DNA of 45,941 nucleotides from a virus (Duplodnaviria; Caudoviricetes): the IMG/VR virus record IMGVR_UViG_3300022217_000002, positions 1-45,941 of that record; one strand, written 5' to 3'. Both the position numbers and the translations under genes were made by a program. The notes beneath the pieces were generated by a model that was not told the origin of the DNA, did no database searches, and worked only from the letters and a program-made list of their open reading frames with translations. This document shows, piece by piece, positions 278 through 45,941 of this stretch (the stretch's first letter is position 1; each line of letters begins with the position of its first letter).

Positions 278-1534
278 ATGGCCCAGAAGAAGCAGCTCCT
301 TACCAAGCTCTACGCCCGGAACAGCATCTATCAACTCGCATGGAAACCTTTCGGCGGAGAATGGGAATACCGAAGCTTGGGGACTCGAGACCCAGAAAAA
401 GCCAAGCGCGAACGACAAAAGCTCATCGACAACTATGTCCCCGACCGCCGCGACGAAATCGCGATCCTCAAAGCCAAGCTCGCCCGTCTCGAAGGAGAGC
501 AGCTGCGCGAAGAGGCCCAAGCCGCCCTGCATATTGATAACGTCTGGAAGGCGTTCATGGAATCGACAGACACGGAGCCCATTCAGCACGCCACCCTTCA
601 AGGGTATGCCAGCTATTGGAAAGGGAAAACCGGCCTCAAGCCCTTCATGGAGCGCAGGGGTATCGCAACGCTTGCGGATTTTGGGTCCGAAGACGCCGGC
701 GAGTTCATCAAGTACCTTGCTGCCGAAGGCATCGGGAAGGCTACGGCAACCAAGTACCTGACGTTCTTCCGCCGCCTGTGGGACACGATAGCCCCCCGCA
801 TCGAGAATCCCTGGAAGCGCAAGAAAGCACAGGGCTTCGGCGGGAAGGTCGGCAAGAGACCATTCACTCTCGACCATCAGAGCCAGATCATCCACGATAC
901 GGGCCGCTACTTCGAGCATGCGGACTACATGCCGCCGCAAGAGCGGGAGCAAGCGTCCATCGAATACAAGGCGCTGCACATCATCATGGCCTATACCGGG
1001 CTTCGCTTGGTCGATGCCTGCATGTTGACGCTTGAAGAGGTTTTCTTCGGGCGTGGCGTTATCGAACTCGCTCCCCAAAAGACCCGCTTCCGGGGCGACG
1101 ACCCCATGTATGCGAAGATCGGAATCCATCCCGTCCTCGGCGTGGTGCTGCGAACGCTCATGTTGGGGAGGACATCGGGATACTTCCTATGTCACATCGC
1201 ATCAGAGTACCAGCGGGATAAGTCTGCGGTCAGCAAACATATCCAGCAGCAGATCCACACGGCAACGGAACTGGCGTGCTGCGTCAGGGCTCCGGGCCGC
1301 AAGAGGGCCATTGCGGTCTACGGTGCGCATTCGCATCGCAAGGCGCTTTCCGACCGCATGCGCGAAGCCGGGATTGACATCATGGTCCGCTTGCAGATCT
1401 TGGGCCACAAGGACAGCCGCTCGGAAGCGCAGGACTATTCCCACGTCAGCGATCAGGAAGTCAGGGACGCCATCATGAAGTCCATGCCGGATCTTCTAAG
1501 AAACCATTCGGCTTCATCAATTTCACAAATTTAA
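278..1534 (+). CDS. int: Tyrosine recombinase (phage integrase)
   Basis: Catalytic motifs YTGLR, HSHR and LGH...DYSH; SD-like AGAAAGGA upstream; adjacent to attP. Confidence 0.95.
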   Translation: MAQKKQLLTKLYARNSIYQLAWKPFGGEWEYRSLGTRDPEKAKRERQKLIDNYVPDRRDEIAILKAKLARLEGEQLREEAQAALHIDNVWKAFMESTDTEPIQHATLQGYASYWKGKTGLKPFMERRGIATLADFGSEDAGEFIKYLAAEGIGKATATKYLTFFRRLWDTIAPRIENPWKRKKAQGFGGKVGKRPFTLDHQSQIIHDTGRYFEHADYMPPQEREQASIEYKALHIIMAYTGLRLVDACMLTLEEVFFGRGVIELAPQKTRFRGDDPMYAKIGIHPVLGVVLRTLMLGRTSGYFLCHIASEYQRDKSAVSKHIQQQIHTATELACCVRAPGRKRAIAVYGAHSHRKALSDRMREAGIDIMVRLQILGHKDSRSEAQDYSHVSDQEVRDAIMKSMPDLLRNHSASSISQI

Positions 1535-6400: not shown

Positions 6401-8463
6401 TCTTCAAGGGCGGGGTCCGCTCTTTGCGACTCATCTGTGCGCGGCAATTCGGTTTGCGACTCATCCGCCGCCGTTTGTGAGACACTAACCGTCTCAACCT
6501 CTTCGGCCTCCTTATAGCGGCGCAACTGGTCCACTACCGCCTTCTCTTGCTCTGGCGACAAAATGGGGGTACGGTCCGGATGTTCCCTCGATTGCCTTAG
6601 ATGACCCTTTAGAAATCGCCGGAGATGTTCAATGTGGGCCTCGCGAAATGTCTGATCGCCTTCCATCGCGATATTCCCACCCGTTTCGGAGACGCGGATC
6701 GTATGAACATCGCCCTCCTCGGTCGGGAACACTCCGCCGTAGACCGCCCCCACCTCTTCGGCTGCCGTCTGAACCTGCTCTTTACTGGATTTGTTTGTGG
6801 TCCGCGTGCCCTCAACGGCATAGACCCCGGACGGTGCGGGAGTCTGCGATGGAGCCGCCGCTTCTTCCTTCTGGGCAGGCCCTTGCTCGCTCCAGAACTT
6901 CTTATTGAGCGTCCGGGTCTTGTTGGGGCCGGTGCTGATCGTAACGGTGTTTTCATCTTCCGTGACAAACTCGCCCCTGACAGTGGTCTTCCCATCATCC
7001 ATAACAAAGGTGCGGACATTCGTTCCTTCAACATCTGAGGATGTAGAAGGCTGAACAGCTCTCGCGGATTTGGGTGGTTTGGCGGAATAGGAGGAAACCG
7101 CCTCATCTGGCGTCGGTTTCGCGATGGGCTGTTCAGCCTGTTTAAGCTCTTCGGTTGACCGGGACTTCGCTTCCTTGACCGGCTGCCCCCGATCATCTGA
7201 GACGACCTCTTGCTCCAGGGTAACAGGGCGGCCTTCGGGGGTCGTGACTCCGGGCTGGACAACCTTTTCGGTGAGGGGGGACTCTTTTGTCTTAGCGGCG
7301 GCCTGTATTTCCTTGTCAGCTTCTGGAGCTTCTATTGTTGGCGATCCTTCAACGGCACCCTTTTCCTTGGCTTGCGATTGAATAGCGCCAGCCTCTACCG
7401 GCAACCCGAGGGTCGCCATAAGTAAGCCTACGCCGGCCCCCTGCTTGAACGATTCCCCAAGATTTTCCCCCTCTAGCCCGGCGCGAACCCCCTGTTCACT
7501 GGCGATCTGTTCGGCCATCTTCTTTTTCATGTGGTTGGAGATGCCGCCTTGGCCCAGCTCTTCCAGCCCTTCCGATATGCCGCGTGGCAAGATTTTCAAA
7601 ATCTGCTTGAACGCCCCGGTTTTCTTGAGTGCATCAATAGTGGCGTCCTGCGCCTGCGTTCCTTTCAGACCCTTGAGCCACCCCTTCAACTGGTAGGCAT
7701 TTGAAGCGTATTCAACCGCGCCGGAAAGCATGCCGTATTTGGCCGCGTATTCGCTCGCGTACTTGTCGGCGGTTTGCTCATCAAGGCCCGCCTTTTTCAG
7801 TTGCTCGAAGGTTTCCTTGTAGAACGCCGCGCTTTCGTTGGCGGTCATGGCCGCATAGCCCGTGTACGCCCCCGCCGGACCACCCAATGCAGAAGCCGCC
7901 GCTGCCTCAACCATAATAAACGCGTTCTCGGCCAAGCCCAACAACGGGCTTGAGGAAGGGATCTCCTGCCTGAACCTGTTTACGTCCTCTTCCCACTTCT
8001 TGGTAGAGCCGGTTACCTTGTCGTAGAACTGCAAGGCTTTTTGCCGCTGCTGAAACGAGCGTTGGGAGGCTTTGTCGGCGTCTGCGCGTAACGCCGTGTC
8101 TTCAGGGTAGCGGTCCGCCAATTGCGCCAGAATCTCTGCCTCGGACATTCCGCCCGCAATCTTTGCGTCGCCGAATTGCGACAAGCCCAAGCCGGCACTA
8201 CCAACGCCTTTCGTCGTTCCGACAACTAAGGCTTTACCTGCGGTTCCAAGCGTCTCCAAAGCTGCGCCCGGAAGCTCTTTCATAACGCCCATCGCCCCGC
8301 CCGGAGAAGACGGCTCAAAAGGGGCAGGAGTCGGCTCAAGGCGAGCAGGAGGTGGCCCCAAGATGCCTTCCACCGTCGAAGCCGGATCTTCGGGCAACGG
8401 GCCCAGAACATCCTCGATCCGTTTTCGAGGCGGCGGCCCTAGAATGCTGTCAACAGTGGGCAT
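3469..8463 (-). CDS. Large 1664-aa protein, probable internal virion / DNA-ejection protein
   Basis: Long ORF at the end of the morphogenesis block with Ala/Gly-rich helical segments; function inferred from position. Confidence 0.7.
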   Translation of the reverse strand: MPTVDSILGPPPRKRIEDVLGPLPEDPASTVEGILGPPPARLEPTPAPFEPSSPGGAMGVMKELPGAALETLGTAGKALVVGTTKGVGSAGLGLSQFGDAKIAGGMSEAEILAQLADRYPEDTALRADADKASQRSFQQRQKALQFYDKVTGSTKKWEEDVNRFRQEIPSSSPLLGLAENAFIMVEAAAASALGGPAGAYTGYAAMTANESAAFYKETFEQLKKAGLDEQTADKYASEYAAKYGMLSGAVEYASNAYQLKGWLKGLKGTQAQDATIDALKKTGAFKQILKILPRGISEGLEELGQGGISNHMKKKMAEQIASEQGVRAGLEGENLGESFKQGAGVGLLMATLGLPVEAGAIQSQAKEKGAVEGSPTIEAPEADKEIQAAAKTKESPLTEKVVQPGVTTPEGRPVTLEQEVVSDDRGQPVKEAKSRSTEELKQAEQPIAKPTPDEAVSSYSAKPPKSARAVQPSTSSDVEGTNVRTFVMDDGKTTVRGEFVTEDENTVTISTGPNKTRTLNKKFWSEQGPAQKEEAAAPSQTPAPSGVYAVEGTRTTNKSSKEQVQTAAEEVGAVYGGVFPTEEGDVHTIRVSETGGNIAMEGDQTFREAHIEHLRRFLKGHLRQSREHPDRTPILSPEQEKAVVDQLRRYKEAEEVETVSVSQTAADESQTELPRTDESQRADPALEERSRQLRKAGYVGVPDRAGASRIVRQAGRLIRRKFTRTRGMDADTHASTIERKHAREAAKLVGQATRQDFQRARARLIKKHDKQKVGQWMQDVVYGEKTIDEFRNEFGLPRDHIAVRALNGFNIQRRANSQRLAQLLEEQGAPADLVAKVAENDYYVSRFYLKHLLGDEFVPKQEDYDAAVMEIQAGIEESLENLVESATKARGKQRRTTIDIVGYLQTRDATMLEGMSDSRREQIQRVANKFDKLSQVIESIAYDEDGNVRVEPNTDALLDAAQSTVDYFLNREQAGGGAIDTSNLKKRFLEGAFRVLYQEVTDPQFAAAKTIESQELLIANMTMFNLLARNGRGKVWTDFRSREAGTEVPLGEATNPADKMKYGKLAGKYVTKELHDAVTGGTKPGWIRSNLWFKPMGVMRGLKLLGPKTIGRNYTEAYVGFAVGSGDALRKGYGKNIRKAHALAGDFVARKPKALREVSELVKKGVFSLRGNTQAEEVLNLLTTDPRNWAGQKFQRAMELYSIIDFPTKIAAYWSALDRGMTEAQAVEHVRKFYQNPESVPEFTHGLSRTGITDYVGYFVDSIRIRANQVRHAMDSAKKGDFVPMVGLTTSASIDTLRRTGKIALISTGLKGAWVAIQQAIRDDDDEIDKVELLEDGGRQTALREFMPDWYQDAPLIVWEETKKDGGRAVFYTALGGNSAFPLEDMIYGALQAEESDIEAPANVLKQVWRDKINPLRPGMYPSALYKWFTGDSLGGDYKSTGIQDVLVGEHPRKSEIIREATINLGLDVLGGQFGPKVTQTRAIGRKQSGDVEPRAGTYTPYRSVREVWTSLANPTRTYGIDKNEASILVRNKVVGLRDALRASKGMVSMREKALRNLGDSTAYLDKSAGLGQAKRYEYLKKAEGVFKNAQTAFGGILKDHEIEAILKDGMDVSADEAKAVRYGKVDNLRKYRPDPRKTALQRGSSSRSRRRPSAPKRRAPAFP

Positions 8464-27613: not shown

Positions 27614-28336
27614 TTAGTGATCTGCGCCGGGGGGGTGCCCCCCACCTATAGAGGCGTCCCCCGCTCCACCACCAACGGACACCCCATCCGTAGCACTGCC
27701 CTCTGTACATTGAGCCACATTGCAGTACTCAACCGTATTGTCCTCAAACGTGATGGAGATCCGCGCCAGTCCCAGCGCGCGAACCAATGCCTTTGCCACC
27801 TTGCGCAAGCCGTGCGTCTGCATCAGCACACGGGCCGGGTCCTCGCCGTAGAGGTGGCAACGTGCGAGGACCGCGCACACACTGGCCGGGTCTACAGCCT
27901 CGTTTGGATCGGGCTGGGCTGCGTGATGCGCCAGCAGATCCTTGCACGCCTTGATTGACTCCGCATCCCTGCCGTGCTGCGCGATCCACTCCAGCCGCTC
28001 GCGGATGCCATCAGGCGTGCGGACATCAAAGACCGGCGGCGGAATCCGTCCTCCTATTTTTCGGGTGGGCGCGCCGTCGTCCACGTTGTTGCTTTCGGGT
28101 TTCGCGGTTGTTTTTTTATTGTTTTTCTTTTTAAGAGGGTTTTGACACAGCTTTCCATTGTCTTCTCTGAGCTCTGCGTTTCTGTTTTTGGCTCGGGTGG
28201 CGGTTTTCCGGACGGTGGGCGTTGGTTTGCGTTTTGATTTGGGCTTCGGCATGAGGGGTTTGGCATGGATTGATTGGGCCATGTCCGCCGGGGAGAGGTT
28301 GACAACCTCTGTGTCAGATGTTGGCGTTACAGCCAT
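27614..28336 (-). CDS. Terminase small subunit candidate
   Basis: First gene of the packaging block; basic N-half and ERLEWIA...ESIKACKDL helix pattern. Confidence 0.5.
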   Translation of the reverse strand: MAVTPTSDTEVVNLSPADMAQSIHAKPLMPKPKSKRKPTPTVRKTATRAKNRNAELREDNGKLCQNPLKKKNNKKTTAKPESNNVDDGAPTRKIGGRIPPPVFDVRTPDGIRERLEWIAQHGRDAESIKACKDLLAHHAAQPDPNEAVDPASVCAVLARCHLYGEDPARVLMQTHGLRKVAKALVRALGLARISITFEDNTVEYCNVAQCTEGSATDGVSVGGGAGDASIGGGHPPGADH

Positions 28337-37592: not shown

Positions 37593-38026
37593 TGAGCGAA
37601 CAAACACACAAGAGAAACCTACGTTTTTTTGTTCCGTGCATCCCCCCGAAGGCCACCAGCCAACAAAAGGGAATCATGATGATTGGAGGGAAGCCGCGCC
37701 ACTTCAAAAAAGCACACGTGAGGGAGGCGGAGGACACCATAACTTCGCTCTTTGCAGAGCACCGTCCCGACATGCCGTTCCAAGGGGCGGTAAAACTAAC
37801 CGTTTACTGGACATACCCTTGGCGGAAATCGGAACCAAAGAAAAACAGGGCTGGCGGAAGAAAGTGGTGCGACACCCGCCCCGACTGCTCGAACATCGTG
37901 AAAATGGTCGAAGACTGCCTAACGCGGCTCAACTTCTGGAATGACGATTCGCAGGTAGCCGCCCTCCACGTTGAGAAAGGATGGGGAGATGCGCCGGGAA
38001 TAGGAATAAGAATCGAGGAACTATGA
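37592..38026 (+). CDS. rusA: RusA-family Holliday junction resolvase
   Basis: RPDCSNIVKMVEDCL and WNDDSQV motifs. Confidence 0.88.
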   Translation: MSEQTHKRNLRFFVPCIPPKATSQQKGIMMIGGKPRHFKKAHVREAEDTITSLFAEHRPDMPFQGAVKLTVYWTYPWRKSEPKKNRAGGRKWCDTRPDCSNIVKMVEDCLTRLNFWNDDSQVAALHVEKGWGDAPGIGIRIEEL

Positions 38027-38050
38027 TTAAAACAACAAAGGAGAATAGTC

Positions 38051-38323
38051 ATGGATCAGGGAAGTACCGCAAAGCGAAACCCCGAAGTAGTGCAGGCCCA
38101 AGATATGTTGGACCACGCAATCGACAAGCTCGGTTGCGTGGTGGATGAAATCCAAATAAAGGCTGCGTCTGTTCTGAGACAAGGGCCCTCAGCCAGCCCG
38201 GACGACACAACTAGGGAAACCCAGTTTGCAACGCCTCTGGCGCAAAGCCTTGAGGCTCTGGCGCACAAGGCTGAGCGATTCGCTTTCAATGGGGAGGATC
38301 TCCTCAACAGGATCGAGGTTTAG
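38051..38323 (+). CDS. Hypothetical protein
   Basis: AAGGAG SD; 90 aa. Confidence 0.65.
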   Translation: MDQGSTAKRNPEVVQAQDMLDHAIDKLGCVVDEIQIKAASVLRQGPSASPDDTTRETQFATPLAQSLEALAHKAERFAFNGEDLLNRIEV

Positions 38324-38327
38324 AATT

Positions 38328-38495
38328 TGCCGGGAACGGGGCGGAAGAGGTATTCGGCGGCCTCCCTTGAGGGGGCGGTAATCTTTCCGGCGAGATTAAT
38401 GTCACCGGCAACAACGGTGCGGCCTGGGTCAACGCACCGTTTGGACAAACAAGAACAAGCCGTGTGTACGACCGAACGGTCCCTGTTCCCCGGCA
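38328..38495 (+). ncRNA. Candidate structured RNA
   Basis: Closing helix 38328-38341/38480-38495 encloses two hairpin domains in an intergenic gap. Confidence 0.5.
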
Positions 38496-38560
38496 TTGTT
38501 TAGTACGAGCAAAGGAGTTCGCGTTCTCGCTTCTGTGAGGGGTTGCGGGAGGCACTGACA

Positions 38561-38686
38561 ATGGGCATGAACAAGCAAAAGGGCAATATGTTCGACTGGG
38601 TCACCCACACCCACACCCACATCGTCTACGAACTATTTAAGCTTGGCTTGATGGAAGAGGAAGGGGTCGAGCGATGTGTTGGATAA
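38561..38686 (+). pseudogene. Truncated DUF5131/Gp37Gp68-like gene
   Basis: GGAGG SD; MNKQKGNMFDWVTHT matches the recalled family N-terminus; the CxxxCxxC part is missing after an ACCCAC repeat. Confidence 0.5.
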
Positions 38687-39090
38687 AGCACCAAACCCAA
38701 CCAACAGACAACTCGTGTGTCGCGGCCTGCATTGCCATGGCCTGCAATAAACCCGTCAAAGAGATCATGGCGAAGTTCCACAACCCCGAGTGTGGCATCG
38801 CGTTTGACGAAACCATTAGCGCACTCGCGGATGAGGGCGTTCCATCTATTCAGTATGCAAGCGGTAGCTTTATGCCGTGGGGGAGGACGTTCCTAATAAC
38901 TGTTCCCAGCTTGAATGCCGAGGCTATGAACCATGCCGTCATCATACACGCCAATTCTTCTAAAGACGGGATCACCATATACGACCCGAATGACGGCAGA
39001 GAAGGCAAGAAAGTGTATGGCCGAGATTGTGACCTAAAATGCTACGCCGAAATTGTTGAGATATTCCCACCAGAAGAGGCCAAGCAATGA
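38674..39090 (+). CDS. Peptidase C39-like protein
   Basis: QTQPTDNSCVAACIAM, NHAVI and IYDPN give the Cys-His-Asp triad. Confidence 0.8.
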   Translation: MCWIKHQTQPTDNSCVAACIAMACNKPVKEIMAKFHNPECGIAFDETISALADEGVPSIQYASGSFMPWGRTFLITVPSLNAEAMNHAVIIHANSSKDGITIYDPNDGREGKKVYGRDCDLKCYAEIVEIFPPEEAKQ

Positions 39091-39431
39091 GCACCCCCGA
39101 CATTCTCTATCTAATACTCAAGAAGAAGTGGTTCGACCTCATGGTTGCGGGCAAGAAGGATATCGAGTACCGCGAGTGCAAGCCATACTGGAAACAACGC
39201 CTTGAATTTCCCGTGGTTGGTCCAATGCCTTTTGATGAGGTCCATATCTGCAACGGCTACGGAAGATGCCGACCGGCGATTGTGCGCACGTTTATTAAAA
39301 CGCACATGTATAGGCACGCTTTAAACCGCGAAAAGTATTTCCTGTACCCCCAAAATGGCGAGCCGCTCATTGAAGGCGGCTGGTACTACGCCATCGAGCT
39401 GGGGCCGATTACAGAAAGGCGGAACTGCTGA
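39087..39431 (+). CDS. ASCH domain protein
   Basis: LKKKWFDLMVAGKKDIEYRECKPYW and NGY motifs. Confidence 0.85.
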   Translation: MSTPDILYLILKKKWFDLMVAGKKDIEYRECKPYWKQRLEFPVVGPMPFDEVHICNGYGRCRPAIVRTFIKTHMYRHALNREKYFLYPQNGEPLIEGGWYYAIELGPITERRNC

Positions 39432-39514
39432 TGAGGAAGATCACTACACCCGAAATGGAGCCTCAAGCGTCAGGTTCTGGACCTTGAGAAACAACTAAGG
39501 GAGTTAAGGGAGAA

Positions 39515-40096
39515 GTGCCGGACGACCACATAGACCTGTACGACGGATTTTCAGAGTGGGGCTGGTTTCAGGACAGCGAGTGCGTGCATCTGTTCGTCTA
39601 CATGCTTCTCAAGGCCAGAAGGCGCGACGGTCAGTACCGTAACCGAAAGATAAAGCGGGGTGAACTCGTAACGAGCTGCGAAAAGCTGTCTACGGCAACG
39701 GGCATCTCCGAACGGTCGATTAAAACCCGCATTCGGCGGATGTGCGAGAGCGGAGAAATCGAAACCAGAACCATCGACACGGACAAAGGCAGGTTCGGGG
39801 TTGTTAAGATCGTGAACTACGGCAAATACCAGAGAGACCCAAAGGCGTCGCAAAAGACTAAGGCTGCGAACCAAGAAACCGCCCGACAATTCAAAAAGCC
39901 GACCATTGAAGAGGTACAAGCATGCATCGAAGAGCGCGTTGCCAAAGGCAAGCCGAAAGTCGATGCCGAACGGTTTTGGAATTTCTACGAATCCAAGGGC
40001 TGGAAGGTCGGGAATCAGCCGATGAAAGACTGGAAGGCAGCTGTTCGCACTTGGGAAAACAAGAATCTGAGAGAGGACTACTTGAACTATGAATAG
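39515..40096 (+). CDS. Phage replication initiator-like protein
   Basis: HLFVYMLLKA...KRGELVTS wHTH, IVNYGKYQ, and C-terminal FWNFYESKGWKVG..PMKDWKAAVRTWE. Confidence 0.8.
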   Translation: MPDDHIDLYDGFSEWGWFQDSECVHLFVYMLLKARRRDGQYRNRKIKRGELVTSCEKLSTATGISERSIKTRIRRMCESGEIETRTIDTDKGRFGVVKIVNYGKYQRDPKASQKTKAANQETARQFKKPTIEEVQACIEERVAKGKPKVDAERFWNFYESKGWKVGNQPMKDWKAAVRTWENKNLREDYLNYE

Positions 40097-40715
40097 CGCC
40101 GAGGTTGAAGAGAATTGGGCGGCGCTCATGGAGTGCCACTTCAATTTCAAGCTGGATATGAGCATGCAGGCCGTGTGGTTCAGCCAACTGCGCCGCATGG
40201 TCGGGGGCTGGGGATACGACGCCGAAACCGAAGATCCGACAAAGGACGGGAAGGCAAAGATCATCAACCGCCACCTTTGCAAGGTCATCCCCTATATCGC
40301 CGGGATGGAAAGCGTGCCGCGCAAAAGGGCGGGAAGAAAAGATCCCGGTAGCAGGTTCAACGTCGGCGACCTTGCCCTATGGGTGTGGATCTACAACAGG
40401 CACCACCAGTCTGCGGACGCCGGCATTGTCAGTTTTGTTTACTTGGAGTGTGTCAAGCGAACCATACAGGATTTGCTTGCCCAGGGACGCGATGAACACG
40501 CCGCGATAGTCGCGACGGGCAACACCACGGCCTATTGCGACGTTGGAGAACTCGGAAGCAATCGCGGCCCCACTCCTGCGGAAGCCCGAGCCATCCATGA
40601 ATTTTGTCGGGAGATCGACTTCGACGCGCACGGCGTACTGATGGCACCTCTCGATGAAGCACAACAGTCCGTTGTAGGCGACATGACGGAAGAACTGGCG
40701 GAACAATGTCTGTAG
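40089..40715 (+). CDS. Hypothetical protein after replication initiator
   Basis: Overlapping 208-aa ORF. Confidence 0.65.
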   Translation: MNSAEVEENWAALMECHFNFKLDMSMQAVWFSQLRRMVGGWGYDAETEDPTKDGKAKIINRHLCKVIPYIAGMESVPRKRAGRKDPGSRFNVGDLALWVWIYNRHHQSADAGIVSFVYLECVKRTIQDLLAQGRDEHAAIVATGNTTAYCDVGELGSNRGPTPAEARAIHEFCREIDFDAHGVLMAPLDEAQQSVVGDMTEELAEQCL

Positions 40716-41089
40716 ATAAAAAAAAGAGCGGGAACACCGCAGAGGTCATGATTGCCGTCGGCAACTTTGCAGCCGATCCCAGCCATCAGAACGGGGCCGA
40801 TCTAATCGCCGCCGTGTGCGAGACTCGGGGATTGGATAAGAACAGCCGTATTCGCGTGCTGGACGCCTACATGGGCCAACCCCGCAAGAGAATCAGGTTC
40901 AGCGAAGCCAGGCGGCTCTGCGGGCTGACAGACGCCCGCTCGTGGCATACCCGATGCGAACGCGATCCCCGGTTCCGCGAAGTCACGATTTACAGGGAAA
41001 CCGAAAAGTCACACTACTGCTGGGAAGACGAAGTCATGCGTCTGCTGGCAATGCTTAATCAAGGAGAGCCCATAAATGAAAATCCATAG
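40706..41089 (+). CDS. Possible DNA-binding protein
   Basis: IRFSEARRLCGL wHTH-like C-half. Confidence 0.55.
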   Translation: MSVDKKKSGNTAEVMIAVGNFAADPSHQNGADLIAAVCETRGLDKNSRIRVLDAYMGQPRKRIRFSEARRLCGLTDARSWHTRCERDPRFREVTIYRETEKSHYCWEDEVMRLLAMLNQGEPINENP

Positions 41090-41648
41090 ACAGTCTGCGT
41101 TCCTAACCATGGTCGTGTTGGCCGCTGCGGCCCTTGCAGACCCGCCGCCCATCCCCGAACCGTCTACGAACGGTGGTTTTGCCTCGGCGTTGATGGAAAC
41201 ATTCGATCCGGACGACGCACTGCTTATTATGAGCTATCCCACAAGCCTCTGGCCCGTGGTTGCATCGGCTCGGGCGAACGCGGATCCGATTCCGTTTCCT
41301 CCACCACCCGAGATCTCGGGAATCGTCTATGTCACGAATCCCCCGCCGCGCCGCATGGTGTTCGAGATCGTTCCCCAATACCGCAGAAGCACGAACGAGC
41401 AGTGGCAATGCACGGACATGAGCTTGTTCGCCGTGCTTGAAGGGCCGGGTAGTCGCTTTTACCAGTTGGTTGTCGAAGAGGAAAAAGACGGTCTGGTTTC
41501 CATTGGTTCGCGCTGGCGGGAGTCGATGACCGATACAAACTGGAACTACGGACACATCGCGTTAATCGTCGCGGGCCTAAGCACCAATCTTGAATACAAG
41601 ACTAGCTTTGGAATTGAGTGCCTTGGGGGTTTTAGGGGGGACAGGTAA
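41076..41648 (+). CDS. Secreted Pro-rich hypothetical protein
   Basis: Signal peptide ending AALA-DPPP; AAGGAG SD. Confidence 0.7.
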   Translation: MKIHRQSAFLTMVVLAAAALADPPPIPEPSTNGGFASALMETFDPDDALLIMSYPTSLWPVVASARANADPIPFPPPPEISGIVYVTNPPPRRMVFEIVPQYRRSTNEQWQCTDMSLFAVLEGPGSRFYQLVVEEEKDGLVSIGSRWRESMTDTNWNYGHIALIVAGLSTNLEYKTSFGIECLGGFRGDR

Positions 41649-41686
41649 ACAAGGAGAATGAAAATGGGATTGGATACTACACACGG

Positions 41687-41914
41687 ATGCCACGCGCTGG
41701 TTATCTGCCGGATTCCTCCTTTCGAGTCTCAAAGGGCGGATCAGGAAGAAAGTTCCATTTACTCGGAAAAGATGGACTGTCTTTGTGCGGAGGAATCCTT
41801 CTCTGCAACGATGAGCGCGGGGAAGATTGGGAGAAATTGCCAACAATCCTTAAATGCAAGAAATGCCAAAAGGCAGATAACGGTACGGGTGACCGGCAAG
41901 AAAGGGCTCAATGA
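41687..41914 (+). CDS. Small cassette ORF with Cys/His motifs
   Basis: KFHLL...LCG...CKKC; spans cassette 41700-41881; start uncertain. Confidence 0.5.
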   Translation: MPRAGYLPDSSFRVSKGGSGRKFHLLGKDGLSLCGGILLCNDERGEDWEKLPTILKCKKCQKADNGTGDRQERAQ

Positions 41915-42002
41915 TGAAACGTAAATCGAAGGAATTGCACACGGACGAAGTACACGAAAATGGCGGAGCCTTTTCTTGTACGAGTCCAGCCGCTGGTTCT
42001 GA
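41875..42002 (-). repeat. attC-like site
   Basis: AAC...GCAAGAAAGGGCTC pairs with GAGCCTTTTCTTGT...GTT; the loop holds the next start codon. Confidence 0.75.
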
Positions 42003-42267
42003 TGAAGATCAGCTCGAAAAAACCAAGGAACTATATGCTTATCTCACGGGCGCTGGGTTGCCAGAAGGTGTTACATGCCCAACTCCGAAATTGGATTCAA
42101 ACGTTGCTTTCAGCGTGATTTGGTTTTTGCAGGAAGTCACAGGGGTGCTCCCTGACCACTTCGAGAAATGTTGCGAATGCGACGACATTTTTGACACCCA
42201 CTGCGCGGGTGATTATGACGAAAAAACTGGGGAGCACCGCTGTGATTCCTGCTTGGGCTATTACTGA
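41911..42267 (+). CDS. Cassette ORF with C-terminal zinc finger
   Basis: CCEC...CDSC; starts inside the attC loop. Confidence 0.7.
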   Translation: MMKRKSKELHTDEVHENGGAFSCTSPAAGSDEDQLEKTKELYAYLTGAGLPEGVTCPTPKLDSNVAFSVIWFLQEVTGVLPDHFEKCCECDDIFDTHCAGDYDEKTGEHRCDSCLGYY

Positions 42268-42268
42268 A

Positions 42269-42356
42269 ACAGAACGACGGGCGTGACCTGCGAGGCACAT
42301 AAACTGCAAACGTGAGGACGGGCGTTTTCCTCGTAAGGTCAACGCCTTGGTTGGAG
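42269..42356 (-). repeat. attC-like site
   Basis: Minus strand CTCCAAC-5-CGTTGACC...GGTCACG-6-GTTCTGT, the canonical box layout. Confidence 0.85.
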
Positions 42357-42408
42357 CATGGATTTTGATTTAACAGAAAACACTTGCGAGAATTGAAAGG
42401 AGAATGAA

Positions 42409-42987
42409 ATGGCTCTTGAAGGGTGGAGTGTTAAGAAGGTTGATCGAAGGGAAGTGCGAGACTTCATTGAGAGGTGGCACTATTCTGGCTCGATTAACGG
42501 ATGTATTGCTGATTTTTGCTACGCACTACTTGACAGCGAAGGCAAAATGAAAGGCGCAATGTTTTATGGCAGAATGGCGACGGCGAACCAGTGGAAAAGG
42601 TTCTCTGACAAGCCGGATAACGTGATTGAACTCCGCAGACTGTGCTGCGTGGATGAAACTCCAAGAAACGCGGAAAGCTTTTTTATTGGGAGATCGTTAA
42701 GGCTCCTGAAAAAAGATTGGGGATCGGGAGTTGTGGTTTCATACGCCGACAAAGAATACGGGCATGGTGGAACTATCTACAAGGCCAGCAACTTTGAAAT
42801 GGTTGGAGAAATCAAAGGGGCGCGAGTGATTATGTTTGGAGGGAAGAGATACCACGACAAAACCATCCGCACAAAATATAAAGGAAAGCTCAAGCCTTTC
42901 GCAAAACGGATTAAAGAGGCGCTAGACACAGGAGAGGCGTTTTACAAAACCACAAAGGGTAAATTCACCTATGCGCGTAATATATAG
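42409..42987 (+). CDS. Mom-like (GNAT-fold) DNA modification protein
   Basis: FIERWHYS, IELRRL, PRNAESFFI and VVSYAD...GH.GTIYKASNF motifs. Confidence 0.8.
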   Translation: MALEGWSVKKVDRREVRDFIERWHYSGSINGCIADFCYALLDSEGKMKGAMFYGRMATANQWKRFSDKPDNVIELRRLCCVDETPRNAESFFIGRSLRLLKKDWGSGVVVSYADKEYGHGGTIYKASNFEMVGEIKGARVIMFGGKRYHDKTIRTKYKGKLKPFAKRIKEALDTGEAFYKTTKGKFTYARNI

Positions 42988-43128
42988 ACCCAACGCTGAG
43001 AGTGAGGGTTCCGATGGAAGTTGAACAATGCAGATGCTTTGACGGGGGATGGTGCCCTGTTCACAAGGATCAACCGATTGTGACCGTGACGCGCCTTCCA
43101 TCGGATACCCTCGACTCTTTTGTTGGGC
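42988..43128 (-). repeat. attC-like site (long)
   Basis: GAGAGTGAGGGTTCCGATGGAAG pairs with CTTCCATCGGA(T)ACCCTC(G)ACTCTT, leaving two extrahelical bases. Confidence 0.85.
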
Positions 43129-43210
43129 GTCATGCCGATTGCCCAGCACCAGACAGGGCGTGTCCTGGGGAACTCGACAACCGCATGTGTGCGCGGTGCA
43201 AATGGAAGAC

Positions 43211-43267
43211 GCCCAACAAAATTATGAGCCGCGAGCGTAGCGAGTAGGCTCCATGAACTGGTTGGAT
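43211..43267 (-). repeat. attC-like site (57 bp)
   Basis: Minus strand ATCCAAC-5-CATGGAGC-CTACTCGCTACGCTCGCG-GCTCATA-5-GTTGGGC. Confidence 0.88.
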
Positions 43268-43271
43268 TCAA

Positions 43272-43448
43272 ATGAAGATTGCATTAACAGACCATATGGG
43301 ATGGGCAATAAGGATGGCTGAACAAGATGGACTTAATCCTGTTGAGCTATGCGAGGCCGACTGGATGAAATATAACCGCGTGGGGTACCACACCGCGTGG
43401 GCCTTGTGCCGTTATTATGAGGATGCTCAAAATTATGAAAACCACTGA
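43272..43448 (+). CDS. 58-aa cassette ORF (not in ORF track)
   Basis: Hand-translated MKIALTDHMGWAIRM...; starts just after the attC core. Confidence 0.5.
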   Translation: MKIALTDHMGWAIRMAEQDGLNPVELCEADWMKYNRVGYHTAWALCRYYEDAQNYENH

Positions 43449-43593
43449 TCAGATAAATCATTTCGCAAAGGACCTGAACCGGCTGGTTGATCGCTACGCG
43501 ACGGAGTACGACTTACCTTTGGCGGCGGTGATAGGAACGCTTGAGATTAAGAAACAGGATTTAATCAATGAGCACGATGATGACTCGGAATAA
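43435..43593 (+). CDS. 52-aa cassette ORF (not in ORF track)
   Basis: MKTTDQINHFAKDLNRLVDRYATEYDLPLAAVIGTLEIKKQDL...; stop abuts the attC core. Confidence 0.6.
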   Translation: MKTTDQINHFAKDLNRLVDRYATEYDLPLAAVIGTLEIKKQDLINEHDDDSE

Positions 43594-43667
43594 ATCCAAC
43601 GCTACGGATCAGGGGCGGGTGCCCCAAAAGGAGACTTATGAAACAACCTAAACACGCGACGGGGCAC
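43594..43667 (-). repeat. Partial attC-like site
   Basis: One arm is nearly identical to the arms at 31188 and 44092; GTGCCCC/GGGGCAC stem present, outer partner arm missing. Confidence 0.6.
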
Positions 43668-43838
43668 AGTTGCAAGTTTAAGGATTTCGGCGGTGAAAAG
43701 AAGTGGGTGTGCCCCGGCTGCGGACACAAAATCTCCGATAAGGAGAAGGGGCTTGGCTCTAAATGTTGGCAGGGCTTTGAGTACGAACCTATTTGCACGG
43801 ATAACGCAGAGATGAGACGCGGGAAAGGCGGTGAATGA
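43638..43838 (+). CDS. Small zinc-finger-like cassette ORF
   Basis: AAAGGAG SD in the attC loop; CPGC...CSKC-like spacing (C..C and KCW). Confidence 0.6.
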   Translation: MKQPKHATGHSCKFKDFGGEKKWVCPGCGHKISDKEKGLGSKCWQGFEYEPICTDNAEMRRGKGGE

Positions 43839-43940
43839 AATGAGTGGTGCAACATGTGATACGTTAAGGCGTCTCGGCCGATGCCCGGAAAAAGAAAAGC
43901 GCGAGCCTTTACCCGTCGAATCTCCATCGGCTGGTTCTGT
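43799..43940 (-). repeat. attC-like site
   Basis: AAC..GATGAGA..CGGGAAAGGC pairs with GCCTTTACCCG..TCTC(C)ATC..GTT. Confidence 0.75.
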
Positions 43941-44145
43941 TTCTTCGGTTAGGCAGCAGCTTAACGCTGCAATGATCTCTGAGGCGGTGTTCATAGCCAT
44001 GTGCAGCAAAGAAGGGCTTGAGACCACCGATCAAATCAACGCATGTCGTAGGGTGATTATGAACCTCTGTAATCGGATCGAAAAGAAACAGAACGTCCCG
44101 GATCAGGGGCGGATGCCCGAAAAGGAGACTTATGAAACAAACTGA
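43831..44145 (+). CDS. Cassette ORF
   Basis: Starts in one attC loop and ends in the next. Confidence 0.55.
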   Translation: MNEMSGATCDTLRRLGRCPEKEKREPLPVESPSAGSVSSVRQQLNAAMISEAVFIAMCSKEGLETTDQINACRRVIMNLCNRIEKKQNVPDQGRMPEKETYETN

Positions 44146-44187
44146 AAACGTCGCGGGGCAGCCGTCCTCTGAAGATGCTTGTTCTAA
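44088..44187 (-). repeat. attC-like site
   Basis: AAC..TCAGGGGCGG.TGCCC pairs with GGGCA.CCGTCC(T)CTGA..GTT; SD and ATG in the loop. Confidence 0.75.
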
Positions 44188-44335
44188 ACCAACCATTAAC
44201 GATCTAAAAACGGCTCTATTCGAACTGGAGAGAGAAAGGCTCGTTTCCCAAATGTCAGGTCTTGAAACAGGCTTTGAGCACCCTAACACACAGGCGTTGT
44301 ATAACAGGGTGCTTAAGATAGCTCAAATGGTTTAG
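44132..44335 (+). CDS. Cassette ORF
   Basis: AAAGGAG SD; the TAG stop lies in the next attC core. Confidence 0.65.
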   Translation: MKQTENVAGQPSSEDACSKPTINDLKTALFELERERLVSQMSGLETGFEHPNTQALYNRVLKIAQMV

Positions 44336-44418
44336 AACGACCAGCCTAACCCGCGAGGCTAGAGACGTGGGCATCAAAAGGGGGCGTGGCACTCGTAGGG
44401 TTCAGGCTCTGGTTGTGT
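44332..44418 (-). repeat. attC-like site
   Basis: Minus strand ACACAAC-5-CCTGAACC...GGTTAGG-6-GTTCTAA, the canonical layout. Confidence 0.88.
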
Positions 44419-44486
44419 GGCCCTCTCAAACAAAGGTAAGCCGGAGTGAGGCACGAACTCGGGCTGGTAAAACAGAAACTGGACTT

Positions 44487-45368
44487 ATGATTATGCATGA
44501 ATTGCTTCCTACATTTGAACCAACCGATGCCGATCTTGTGGAGCAGGCTTTGGCCCAACCTCTTGATTTTAAGGTTAAGAACGCAATCGCGATTCTCCAA
44601 CAATTTGAAGGCCGCGCCAAAAAGTTATCTCCTTATGGATTCCATTTGGCGGATTCATTTGGAAAGGACTCTGGTGTGTGTCGAAAACTTCTTCAGCTTG
44701 CAGGTGTTGAATTTGGTGGCTGGCATAACAACACAACGATTGACGCCCCGGAATTGTTGAGATTTGGTAAAGCAATGCATCCAGATACGCAATGGTCGCA
44801 TGTTGGAAAACATATGGTGCTGGATCGTATGCCTGAAAAAGGAAATCCACCGACTCGTTGCGCTCGGTGGTGTTGCGCTGAATACAAAGAGTATGGCGGT
44901 GATGGGAAAGCGAAAGTTATTGGGGTGCGAATTGCTGAAAGCAAACGCCGCGCCGGAATCTGGAAACAGGTTAACGTCAATAAGCGCATGGGGTTGATTA
45001 TTGCTCCGATTGCGTATTGGACAGACAAAGATGTTTGGGATTTTACACACGGTGAAAGCATTCCTTACTCCGAATTATATGACGAGGGGTTTTCGCGTCT
45101 CGGTTGCATTGGGTGCCCACTGTCTGGACCATCTGGGCAGAAGCGAGAATTTGAGCGATGGCCGAAATACGAAAAACTCTGGATGATGGGTTTTGATCGT
45201 ATGTGGAAGCAATGGAAGGGAAGGATAGGGGTTCGATCTGGAACTGAGCGGTTTTGGTATAAGTTTGGTAGCCCTGAAGGGGTTTATGAGTGGTGGAGAT
45301 CGGGGACCGCAGATGGATACAACAACCGGGCGCAGTGCGTTTTTGAGGAGATGATGGAAAATGTGTGA
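44487..45368 (+). CDS. PAPS-reductase family (PP-loop, Fe-S) protein
   Basis: SFGKDS, PPTR..RWCC..YKE, GVRIAES..RA, PIAYW and RLGCIGCP motifs; start uncertain (44487 or 44493). Confidence 0.88.
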   Translation: MIMHELLPTFEPTDADLVEQALAQPLDFKVKNAIAILQQFEGRAKKLSPYGFHLADSFGKDSGVCRKLLQLAGVEFGGWHNNTTIDAPELLRFGKAMHPDTQWSHVGKHMVLDRMPEKGNPPTRCARWCCAEYKEYGGDGKAKVIGVRIAESKRRAGIWKQVNVNKRMGLIIAPIAYWTDKDVWDFTHGESIPYSELYDEGFSRLGCIGCPLSGPSGQKREFERWPKYEKLWMMGFDRMWKQWKGRIGVRSGTERFWYKFGSPEGVYEWWRSGTADGYNNRAQCVFEEMMENV

Positions 45369-45504
45369 AGCGTTGCGCAACCCTGTGCAAGCTGGCCGGA
45401 GGCACGACGGCGAGCGGGTGGTTCCGCTTTCTGTGCTTCTTAGGCCACACAACAGAGTAATAGGTGGAAAACTTTCCGCCATATCAAATATTGAAGGGCA
45501 ATAA

Positions 45505-45681
45505 GTGGAAGAATCAGCTACATGCAAGGCTTGTGGAAACGGCTCATTTCGAGTGACTACTGCGCGAGTTATTTGTACCAAATGCAACCGCTCAACGTGG
45601 TTCGGAAAAGTGAAACCCGGAGAAGAACACCTAGCTGCAAAGGCTGGCGATGTATTCCATCTGATTGATGACAATCATTGA
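45505..45681 (+). CDS. 58-aa zinc-ribbon protein (not in ORF track)
   Basis: GTG start; CKAC...CTKC. Confidence 0.5.
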   Translation: MEESATCKACGNGSFRVTTARVICTKCNRSTWFGKVKPGEEHLAAKAGDVFHLIDDNH

Positions 45682-45814
45682 TGTTTGAGGACATCGAACC
45701 CTAATGCCAAGACCCCTTCCGCCATGTAGCAGTTTGCACAAGTTGAGCGGCTGCGTCCTCAAAAAAGTAGACACTCCAAAACAAACCACTGGATTTGCTG
45801 CGATTCCATACAGC

Positions 45815-45941
45815 TTAGGAATCCGCCGCTCTGTCCAACTGAGCTACCGGGGTATTTATTAATATATTACACTCCCGCCTAGATATATCCCTGTTTTCCT
45901 AGCGATATCCGACATTGTAATATCTTGGTGTAATTTTCGCT
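45815..45941 (+). repeat. Terminal direct repeat, right copy
   Basis: Identical to 1-127. Confidence 0.95.

Follow-up and report, generated by a model that had tools for sequence, protein, structure and literature searches.

A reversed-polarity attC cassette array in a circular phage genome and its natural variation at cassette boundaries

How does a phage that encodes no integron integrase come to carry a row of integron-type cassettes, which way do these cassettes face, and do they move in nature? The questions are raised by the region 41685–45492 of IMG/VR record IMGVR_UViG_3300022217_000002 (Duplodnaviria; Caudoviricetes), whose 45,941 nucleotides, called the window below, are a circular 45.8-kb phage genome in which bases 1–127 repeat 45815–45941 (a 127-base repeat, circular assembly). 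The reading that we consider probable is that of a reverse-polarity cassette array in a temperate phage, in which gain, loss and exchange of cassettes take place at the left-edge AAC of each hairpin, likely through the integron integrase (IntI) of the host.

The attC sites and their orientation

A first-pass annotation of the sequence had described here seven complete hairpins bounded by AAC and GTT, two partial sites, and eight pairs of unit ends that are reverse complements of each other. All eight pairs are present where it had placed them, with 10, 6, 5, 10, 8, 12, 11 and 11 perfectly complementary bases, which is far above chance (0.04% of 12,481 random GTT/AAC pairs in the window reach 10 bases); among the eight, the cognate partner was the best in six cases, tied in one and was beaten in one. 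A covariance model, built from 47 of 74 candidate attC-like sites of bacterial chromosomes, chosen by means of a pattern that derives from site G and related loci, their orientation set by our own L-box scorer, gave eight matches over the window at E ≤ 1, seven of which are the complete hairpins at identical coordinates (five of the seven at 20 bits or more), while the eighth (E 0.93) lies outside the hairpins. The same model had no match in 1.7 Mb of other phage DNA (91 + 80 protein-selected viral loci, default filters), a zero that carries no information on polarity but serves as a clean negative control, and the L-box scorer found five sites scoring at least 11 in 41600–45500 against a mean of 0.01 in 100 shuffles. 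Scorer and model thus agree on an integron-type attC array, and the two partial sites are real remnants; the inventory lacked the leftward direction of the sites and a ninth site, which begins at 45451. The sites and their cassettes, eight in number, are as follows.

41685–41706, minus strand: remnant attC, the oldest and farthest from the anchor (site I); only its inverse-core arm is left, with a 10-base complement to 41872–41881
41875–42002, minus strand: attC A, 23.3 bits, scoring 11.8 with the extrahelical bases on the right against 2.4; cassette A, 41881–42274
42269–42356, minus strand: attC B, 36.8 bits; cassette B, 42275–42993
42988–43128, minus strand: attC C, 44.0 bits, whose extrahelical G and T are textbook ones; cassette C, 42994–43216
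43211–43267, minus strand: attC D, short, 19.8 bits; cassette D, 43217–43599
43594–43667, minus strand: attC E, damaged, its inverse-core arm lost, without a model match; cassette E, 43600–43804
43799–43940, minus strand: attC F, 19.4 bits; cassette F, 43805–44093
44088–44187, minus strand: attC G, its outer L box partly decayed, 21.0 bits; cassette G, 44094–44337
44332–44418, minus strand: attC H, 34.8 bits; cassette H, 44338–45452, adjoining the anchor
45447–45492, minus strand: site I, the fixed anchor that heads the array and takes the position of attI; a mini-hairpin of 42 bases whose end reads ATT where attC has GTT

The region therefore holds a CALIN, a group of attC sites with no integron integrase, that is, at least two attC sites with paired core boxes, an unpaired spacer and extrahelical bases. 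Folding energy was unusual against shuffles for 42988–43128 (z −5.9/−5.5) and for one strand of 42269–42356 (z −3.3). A scan for Rfam families gave no match of any family, and a 76-base search with site D returned chance matches only. No hairpin was found in 41660–41709 at the remnant first site, into which runs a reading frame that starts at 41658 behind a good ribosome-binding site; a small phage gene may have been the place where the array was founded, or may have been truncated by it. The end of cassette A (42266–42275) is complementary over 10 bases to the inverse core of site F (43934–43943) as against 6 bases to its own site, and cassettes A and F may share a past site. Elsewhere in the window, two long, imperfect hairpins bounded by AAC and GTT (7030–7156 and 27747–27904) have no attC model match.

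The orientation of the sites was decided by features other than the complementarity of the ends, which is equal under both polarities and cannot tell them apart. According to the available text of Nivina et al. (2016; PMC5027507), attC is cut by the integrase on its bottom strand, within AAC, and carries its extrahelical bases on the arm that faces this triplet. On the plus strand of the window, all seven complete sites score higher when these bases are placed in the right arm, opposite the AAC, so that plus is the attC bottom strand. The covariance matches are to the minus strand in all seven cases, the cassette genes read on the plus strand, and GC skew is positive (G-rich) on plus at all seven sites, as has been reported for attC bottom strands (PMC5027507). 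In the controls, a Vibrio integron (five array matches) and phage TJE1 (one match), the sites score on the gene strand, the usual polarity. A canonical cassette, a gene and then its own attC with both on the top strand, is thus not what was found: the plus strand is both coding and bottom strand, the reverse of a normal integron, and the hairpin that moves together with a gene is the one ahead of it. Crossover takes place at the left AAC, not the right GTT. The covariance model upheld the seven sites of the first-pass annotation, but that annotation misread the polarity, and its crossover at G|TT on the gene strand was wrong, since extrahelical bases and natural breakpoints alike place it at the AAC.

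Natural variants and other arrays

Four public runs hold parts of the region. One of them (X1) was set aside as the possible source of the window, and it shows a loose end before 43598, at site E; two others (X2 and X3) hold contigs of near-identical phages from two other studies of sediment samples. A 686-base contig of X3 matches 43883–44091 without a difference (209 bases) and then resumes at 45451; the 1,359 bases between are missing, with three shared letters at the junction, so that cassettes G and H are absent from AAC to AAC. For X2, where the listing covered 8 of 43 pieces and 24 of 75 loose ends, a 227-nt contig is 42992–43217 with no difference, exactly from the AAC of site C to that of site D; one contig spans 43803–44095, and three reach 43803 from other sequence. 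A joint in X2 links 43806 to 45450 across sequence that, judged by the record length, would amount to about 600 foreign bases, a different cassette. Contigs also end at 42278 (site B, with a loose end before 42272) and at 44338 (site H), and loose ends lie before 43215 and behind 43263 around site D. Among the 12 listed X2 piece ends within the array, nine fall within −2 to +3 of an AAC, three elsewhere and none at a GTT, and among the six listed loose ends three are at AAC, one at GTT and two elsewhere. X2 cover was zero over the Mom, D and PAPS cassettes, which was not counted as absence.

The conserved part is the backbone with the remnant first site and the oldest cassettes (one difference in an X2 contig covering 39489–42278), and site I is kept in both joints, where it receives different neighbours; variation clusters toward it, as it does toward attI in integrons. 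The array is therefore shuffled in nature, as the first-pass annotation had proposed, with cassettes lacking or exchanged at hairpin edges, although the edge concerned is the AAC, none of the 12 listed X2 piece ends being at the GTT it had named. The cassettes behave as mobile units with their limits at the attC crossover point, as seen in the AAC-to-AAC joint, in the contig ends and in reordering elsewhere: two other viral loci (L466 and L476) carry three identical cassettes in the order A-B-C in one and C-A-B in the other. A second variable spot of this phage is distant from any attC, an X2 contig skipping or replacing 811 bases at 38677–39489 (two small genes).

Other arrays were surveyed by scanning one pattern in viral contigs and bacterial genomes, at least 80 loci each, and a second one in viral contigs only; a first exact pattern scan had given 11 loci, attC-like only in L004/L009, where a related site has an ATG in its loop. 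The matches listed, to which all survey counts refer, held 167 viral and 107 bacterial cassettes, with gene strand assigned by a simple longest-open-reading-frame caller. Genes lay on the bottom strand, on the top strand or were unclear in 96, 6 and 65 viral cassettes as against 9, 67 and 31 bacterial ones. By locus clusters, which are not phylogenetically independent and for which the second viral pattern favours one phage group, 48 of 55 viral clusters were backward, one canonical and six unclear; in bacteria one of 32 was backward, 17 canonical and 14 unclear. Homologous cassettes indicate which hairpin travels with a gene: among 18 pairs, 10 had bodies at least 88% identical, one of them identical throughout and uninformative, and in the remaining nine the better-kept hairpin is the upstream one seven times, while one pair has its right neighbour in common and parts at the left AAC, and another retains neither (three further pairs below 50% identity were dropped). 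With filters off, the covariance model gave one weak minus-strand match, before a Mom homolog in L370, and none in L376, L381 and L384. The Mom homologs of L370 and L376 are about 70% identical to that of the window and have 8-base complementary ends on both sides, and the site in L370, just upstream of the gene, is a weak backward attC.

Phage-borne attC arrays without an integrase, which the first-pass annotation had taken as new, were already known. Qi et al. (2023; PMC9892861) described 17 phage CALINs, giving two to four sites for those in their Table S1, and five of six sites recombined with IntI1 in their assays. Those of TJE1, PH101, P12002L and ctTUS972 likewise combine an attC array, the lack of intI and DNA-modification cargo. 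PH101 (four covariance matches on the plus strand, genes on the minus) and ctTUS972 (four on the minus, genes on the plus) are backward, and the PH101 sites, facing as those of the window do, recombined with IntI1 in the published assay; TJE1, unlike the window, has canonical polarity, and the P12002L sites were not recovered by our scorer. In its available text the article does not mention sites facing against their genes, calls PH101 typical, and reports no natural gain, loss or reordering. A search of open-access texts, without their figures, gave no description of a backward cassette layout and only that study on phage attC arrays; an array of a known kind is here combined with backward polarity, unremarked in the literature found, and with field evidence of precise cassette change. 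Bacterial integrons, as the available texts of PMC5027507 and PMC8946536 describe them, share the attC anatomy, the bottom-strand crossover at AAC and variation at a fixed head site; the window differs from them in lacking intI and in having genes antisense to attC, the hairpin ahead of the gene and often the start codon within it. IntI is also reported to place cassettes at secondary GWT sites (attG) far from its own gene, giving single attC sites lacking integron integrase (SALINs; Loot et al., bioRxiv 10.1101/2022.09.11.507474), and insertion of this type could be a route by which such an array starts, although that work, as available, concerns single cassettes or small clusters in bacterial chromosomes, and the window has eight cassettes, a remnant and one reused head site.

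Recombinase, head site and competing explanations

As the first-pass annotation had stated, the phage encodes no IntI. The only tyrosine-recombinase motif in the window belongs to the phage integrase, which is of ordinary phage type by its sequence, with no match to TIGR02249 (the IntI model) and no similarity to IntI beyond box II, and tblastn with Vibrio IntI found no match in the window; the intI gene that would make a complete integron is accordingly missing. An IntI of the host would then act in trans. Four of five Verrucomicrobiota genomes with a tRNA one mismatch from the phage attP core carry an IntI over the cut-off, one of them with an internal stop, as compared with one of five in a mixed genome set, and IntI was found in 2 of 81 viral loci. 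One viral contig (L100, 2666–5287) has backward cassettes together with an IntI of its own, placed as usual past the head of the array, and amounts to a complete integron whose genes are inverted.

Site I is a ninth, non-canonical site without a GTT partner (fold z −1.97), either an attI or a degenerate attC, and is attI-like by position and behaviour, not by sequence profile. In six of seven IntI-bearing loci, intI lies beyond the array end that corresponds to site I. Many viral arrays share at their end a short inverted-repeat motif that lacks the closing GTT; as a motif like it adjoins intI in a Verrucomicrobiota genome (L269), it is probably an attI. No sigma-70-type promoter facing the array was matched on the minus strand beyond site I, and the consensus scan of 38000–45941 gave three promoter-like sites against 6.3 expected, both with a consensus that may not be the host's.

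The proposed mechanism may be put as follows. The coding strand would be the folded, recombining bottom strand, cut by the host IntI, and cassettes would enter or leave at site I (45451) acting as attI, or at another attC. Their genes would be read from a rightward early transcript of the phage entering from the old end of the array, in which case no Pc promoter is needed; no RNA dataset holding the region was listed. Several loops appear to carry the start of their own gene together with a stop for the gene running in from the left, so that genes would stay translatable after reshuffling. Four predicted window frames cross the next AAC, all with AAC as a codon, and stop in the next loop, three of them overlapping the next start, while among the 96 viral survey genes 84 stop before or at AAC, eight of the 12 crossing ones read AAC as a codon, and 71 start inside their own hairpin, 53 of which cross its GTT in one frame. 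That common frame at the GTT is one within a cassette, not at the crossover; a fusion of genes across the crossover by way of starts in the loops was considered and rejected, as start and gene sit in the same cassette. More speculatively, a rightward fork from the replication module would put the bottom strand on the lagging-strand template, a position that favours attC folding and excision according to the available text of PMC8946536.

Several points weigh against this account. The profile of 34 viral array ends does not match site I, and 22–27% of background GTTs score as high as it does. One X2 loose end stands at a GTT (43263) and two at neither triplet (42395 and 43643), and the end counts come from the 8 pieces listed out of 43 for X2 and the 24 loose ends listed out of 75. 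Gain and loss of a cassette are not separable from contigs, and no excised cassette circle was seen in them. In five homologous pairs at 73–82% identity, the upstream hairpin is the closer in two and the downstream one in three, which suggests that hairpins are swapped too over longer times. Five complete sites fold no better than shuffles (z −1.6 to +0.6), sites E and G are damaged, and the covariance model, its training sites having been chosen by a pattern derived from site G and by our scorer, is not the independent one of IntegronFinder.

Three other explanations were weighed. The canonical array of the first-pass annotation, each gene followed by its own attC with crossover at G|TT on the gene strand, fits the end complementarity, the X2 loose end at the GTT of site D, the three of five diverged pairs that keep the downstream hairpin better, and the low-rate top-strand recombination of some attC sites (PMC5027507, available text). 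It nevertheless seems to us highly improbable, because extrahelical bases, skew and model strand all put the bottom strand on plus, the X3 joint and nine of the 12 listed X2 piece ends are at AAC with none at GTT, and near-identical cassettes keep the upstream hairpin in seven of nine pairs. Shuffling by the phage's own tyrosine integrase, or by another recombinase that is not IntI, we judge unlikely: going round the circle from site I, the integrase gene does begin some 640 bases further on, directed away from the array like intI in four of seven IntI-bearing loci, but the enzyme resembles IntI in nothing beyond box II and has a tRNA-matching attP-like core of its own, the sites match IntI-type attC, and a tyrosine-recombinase motif was found near one of 115 viral array loci (flank of about 2.8 kb, crude motif, loci not deduplicated).

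The array might otherwise be a piece of a host integron that was captured and is now inert, with similar hairpins recombining by a RecT-type route or by slippage to give the variation; in its favour are a RecT-like gene in the phage, the near-repeat character of sites E and G, and the broken state of the left-end site and of site E. This we regard as slightly less probable again than a phage recombinase, as the X3 junction shares only three bases, the cargo is phage-type, and the pattern, applied to hosts, finds arrays of opposite polarity (canonical in 17 of 32 clusters, backward in one). Reverse-polarity cassettes, likely moved by a host IntI, remain our preferred reading.

Cargo, phage background and significance

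The cassettes carry the following genes and predicted open reading frames (ORFs), of which the Mom-like and PAPS-reductase-like genes can be assigned to a family; the last two entries, the attP-like core and the phage integrase, lie outside the cassettes.

41911–42267, plus strand: predicted Cys-rich ORF of 118 aa in cassette A, starting in the loop of site A
42409–42987, plus strand: Mom-family DNA-modification gene, cargo of cassette B (Pfam Mom, E 8.9e-32; PHROG 1384; PDB 8bv8, E 4.6e-10)
43002–43247, plus strand: predicted ORF of cassette C
43272–43448 and 43417–43593, plus strand: two predicted ORFs of 58 aa in cassette D
43638–43838, plus strand: predicted ORF of cassette E, with ribosome-binding site and ATG in the loop of site E
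43831–44145, plus strand: predicted ORF of cassette F
44132–44335, plus strand: predicted ORF of cassette G, with ribosome-binding site and ATG in the loop of site G
44367–45368, plus strand: PAPS-reductase-family gene, cargo of cassette H, its true start probably near 44490 (Pfam PAPS_reduct, E 5.6e-17; PHROG 424; weak PDB matches)
45815–45851, minus strand: attP-like core, 37 bases matching the 5′ half of tRNA-Arg(CCT)
278–1534, plus strand: phage tyrosine integrase (PF00589 and phrog_1; no TIGR02249 match; aligned to Vibrio IntI over 45 residues only)

Sites E and G are nearly the same in left arm and loop, ribosome-binding site and ATG included. The ORF of cassette A falls with viral Atlas clusters at 0.88, which is a lead only. 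Going by the general role of the Mom and PAPS-reductase families, the cargo of cassettes B and H likely modifies the phage DNA against restriction. A search with 41500–45941 against named phages gave 40 records, none covering 80% of the query, and the matches among the 30 listed were all over the Mom or PAPS-reductase genes. Relatives of the 208-aa gene in metagenome contigs came down to one (L561), equal in length to the window and 100% identical over the query protein and hence not independent.

Pfam and PHROG searches of the window gave a large terminase subunit, a capsid-like protein, RecT, an exonuclease, RusA, a DnaD-like replication protein and the tyrosine integrase, and the array lies last in the rightward gene block, immediately ahead of the stretch at 45815, which is likely the attP core given its match to tRNA-Arg(CCT). 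Among 401 Verrucomicrobiota genomes, the only phylum searched, 32 match this core with at most two mismatches and none exactly, a tRNA-Arg(CCT) being present at all four loci checked; ARAGORN found no full tRNA in the window. The nearest Atlas clusters of the integrase are mostly from Planctomycetota, Lentisphaerota and Verrucomicrobiota, and a search for its relatives in viral contigs found none. In the structural region (3469–25951) nearly no protein has a Pfam or PHROGs match, the exceptions being the terminase, a head-tail adaptor and an N4-gp56-type capsid protein, and the phage seems to be far from described groups.

Integrons have been studied as bacterial devices and lately as stores of anti-phage genes, and here is a phage lineage whose accessory region changes in nature at attC crossover points, and whose backward polarity prevails among the sampled viral arrays while being rare among the bacterial ones. 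Software that assigns each gene to the attC behind it would mispair genes and sites in such arrays. It is a tentative suggestion on our part, and one that we hold to be possible without favouring it, that many phages run a cassette economy of their own on the host IntI, with their own head site, backward cassettes, polarity as a firewall and the recombining strand on the lagging-strand template, and so reshuffle their anti-restriction genes fast. If the firewall is true, the phage transcript would run antisense to any host cassette, often anti-phage, that was inserted in the phage array and would leave it silent; a phage cassette taken up at a host attI would be silent as well, being antisense to Pc. 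The finding also bears on the question of where cassettes are made, and, if the host IntI does the work, phages exploit an enzyme of their hosts to vary the genes with which they counter host defence.

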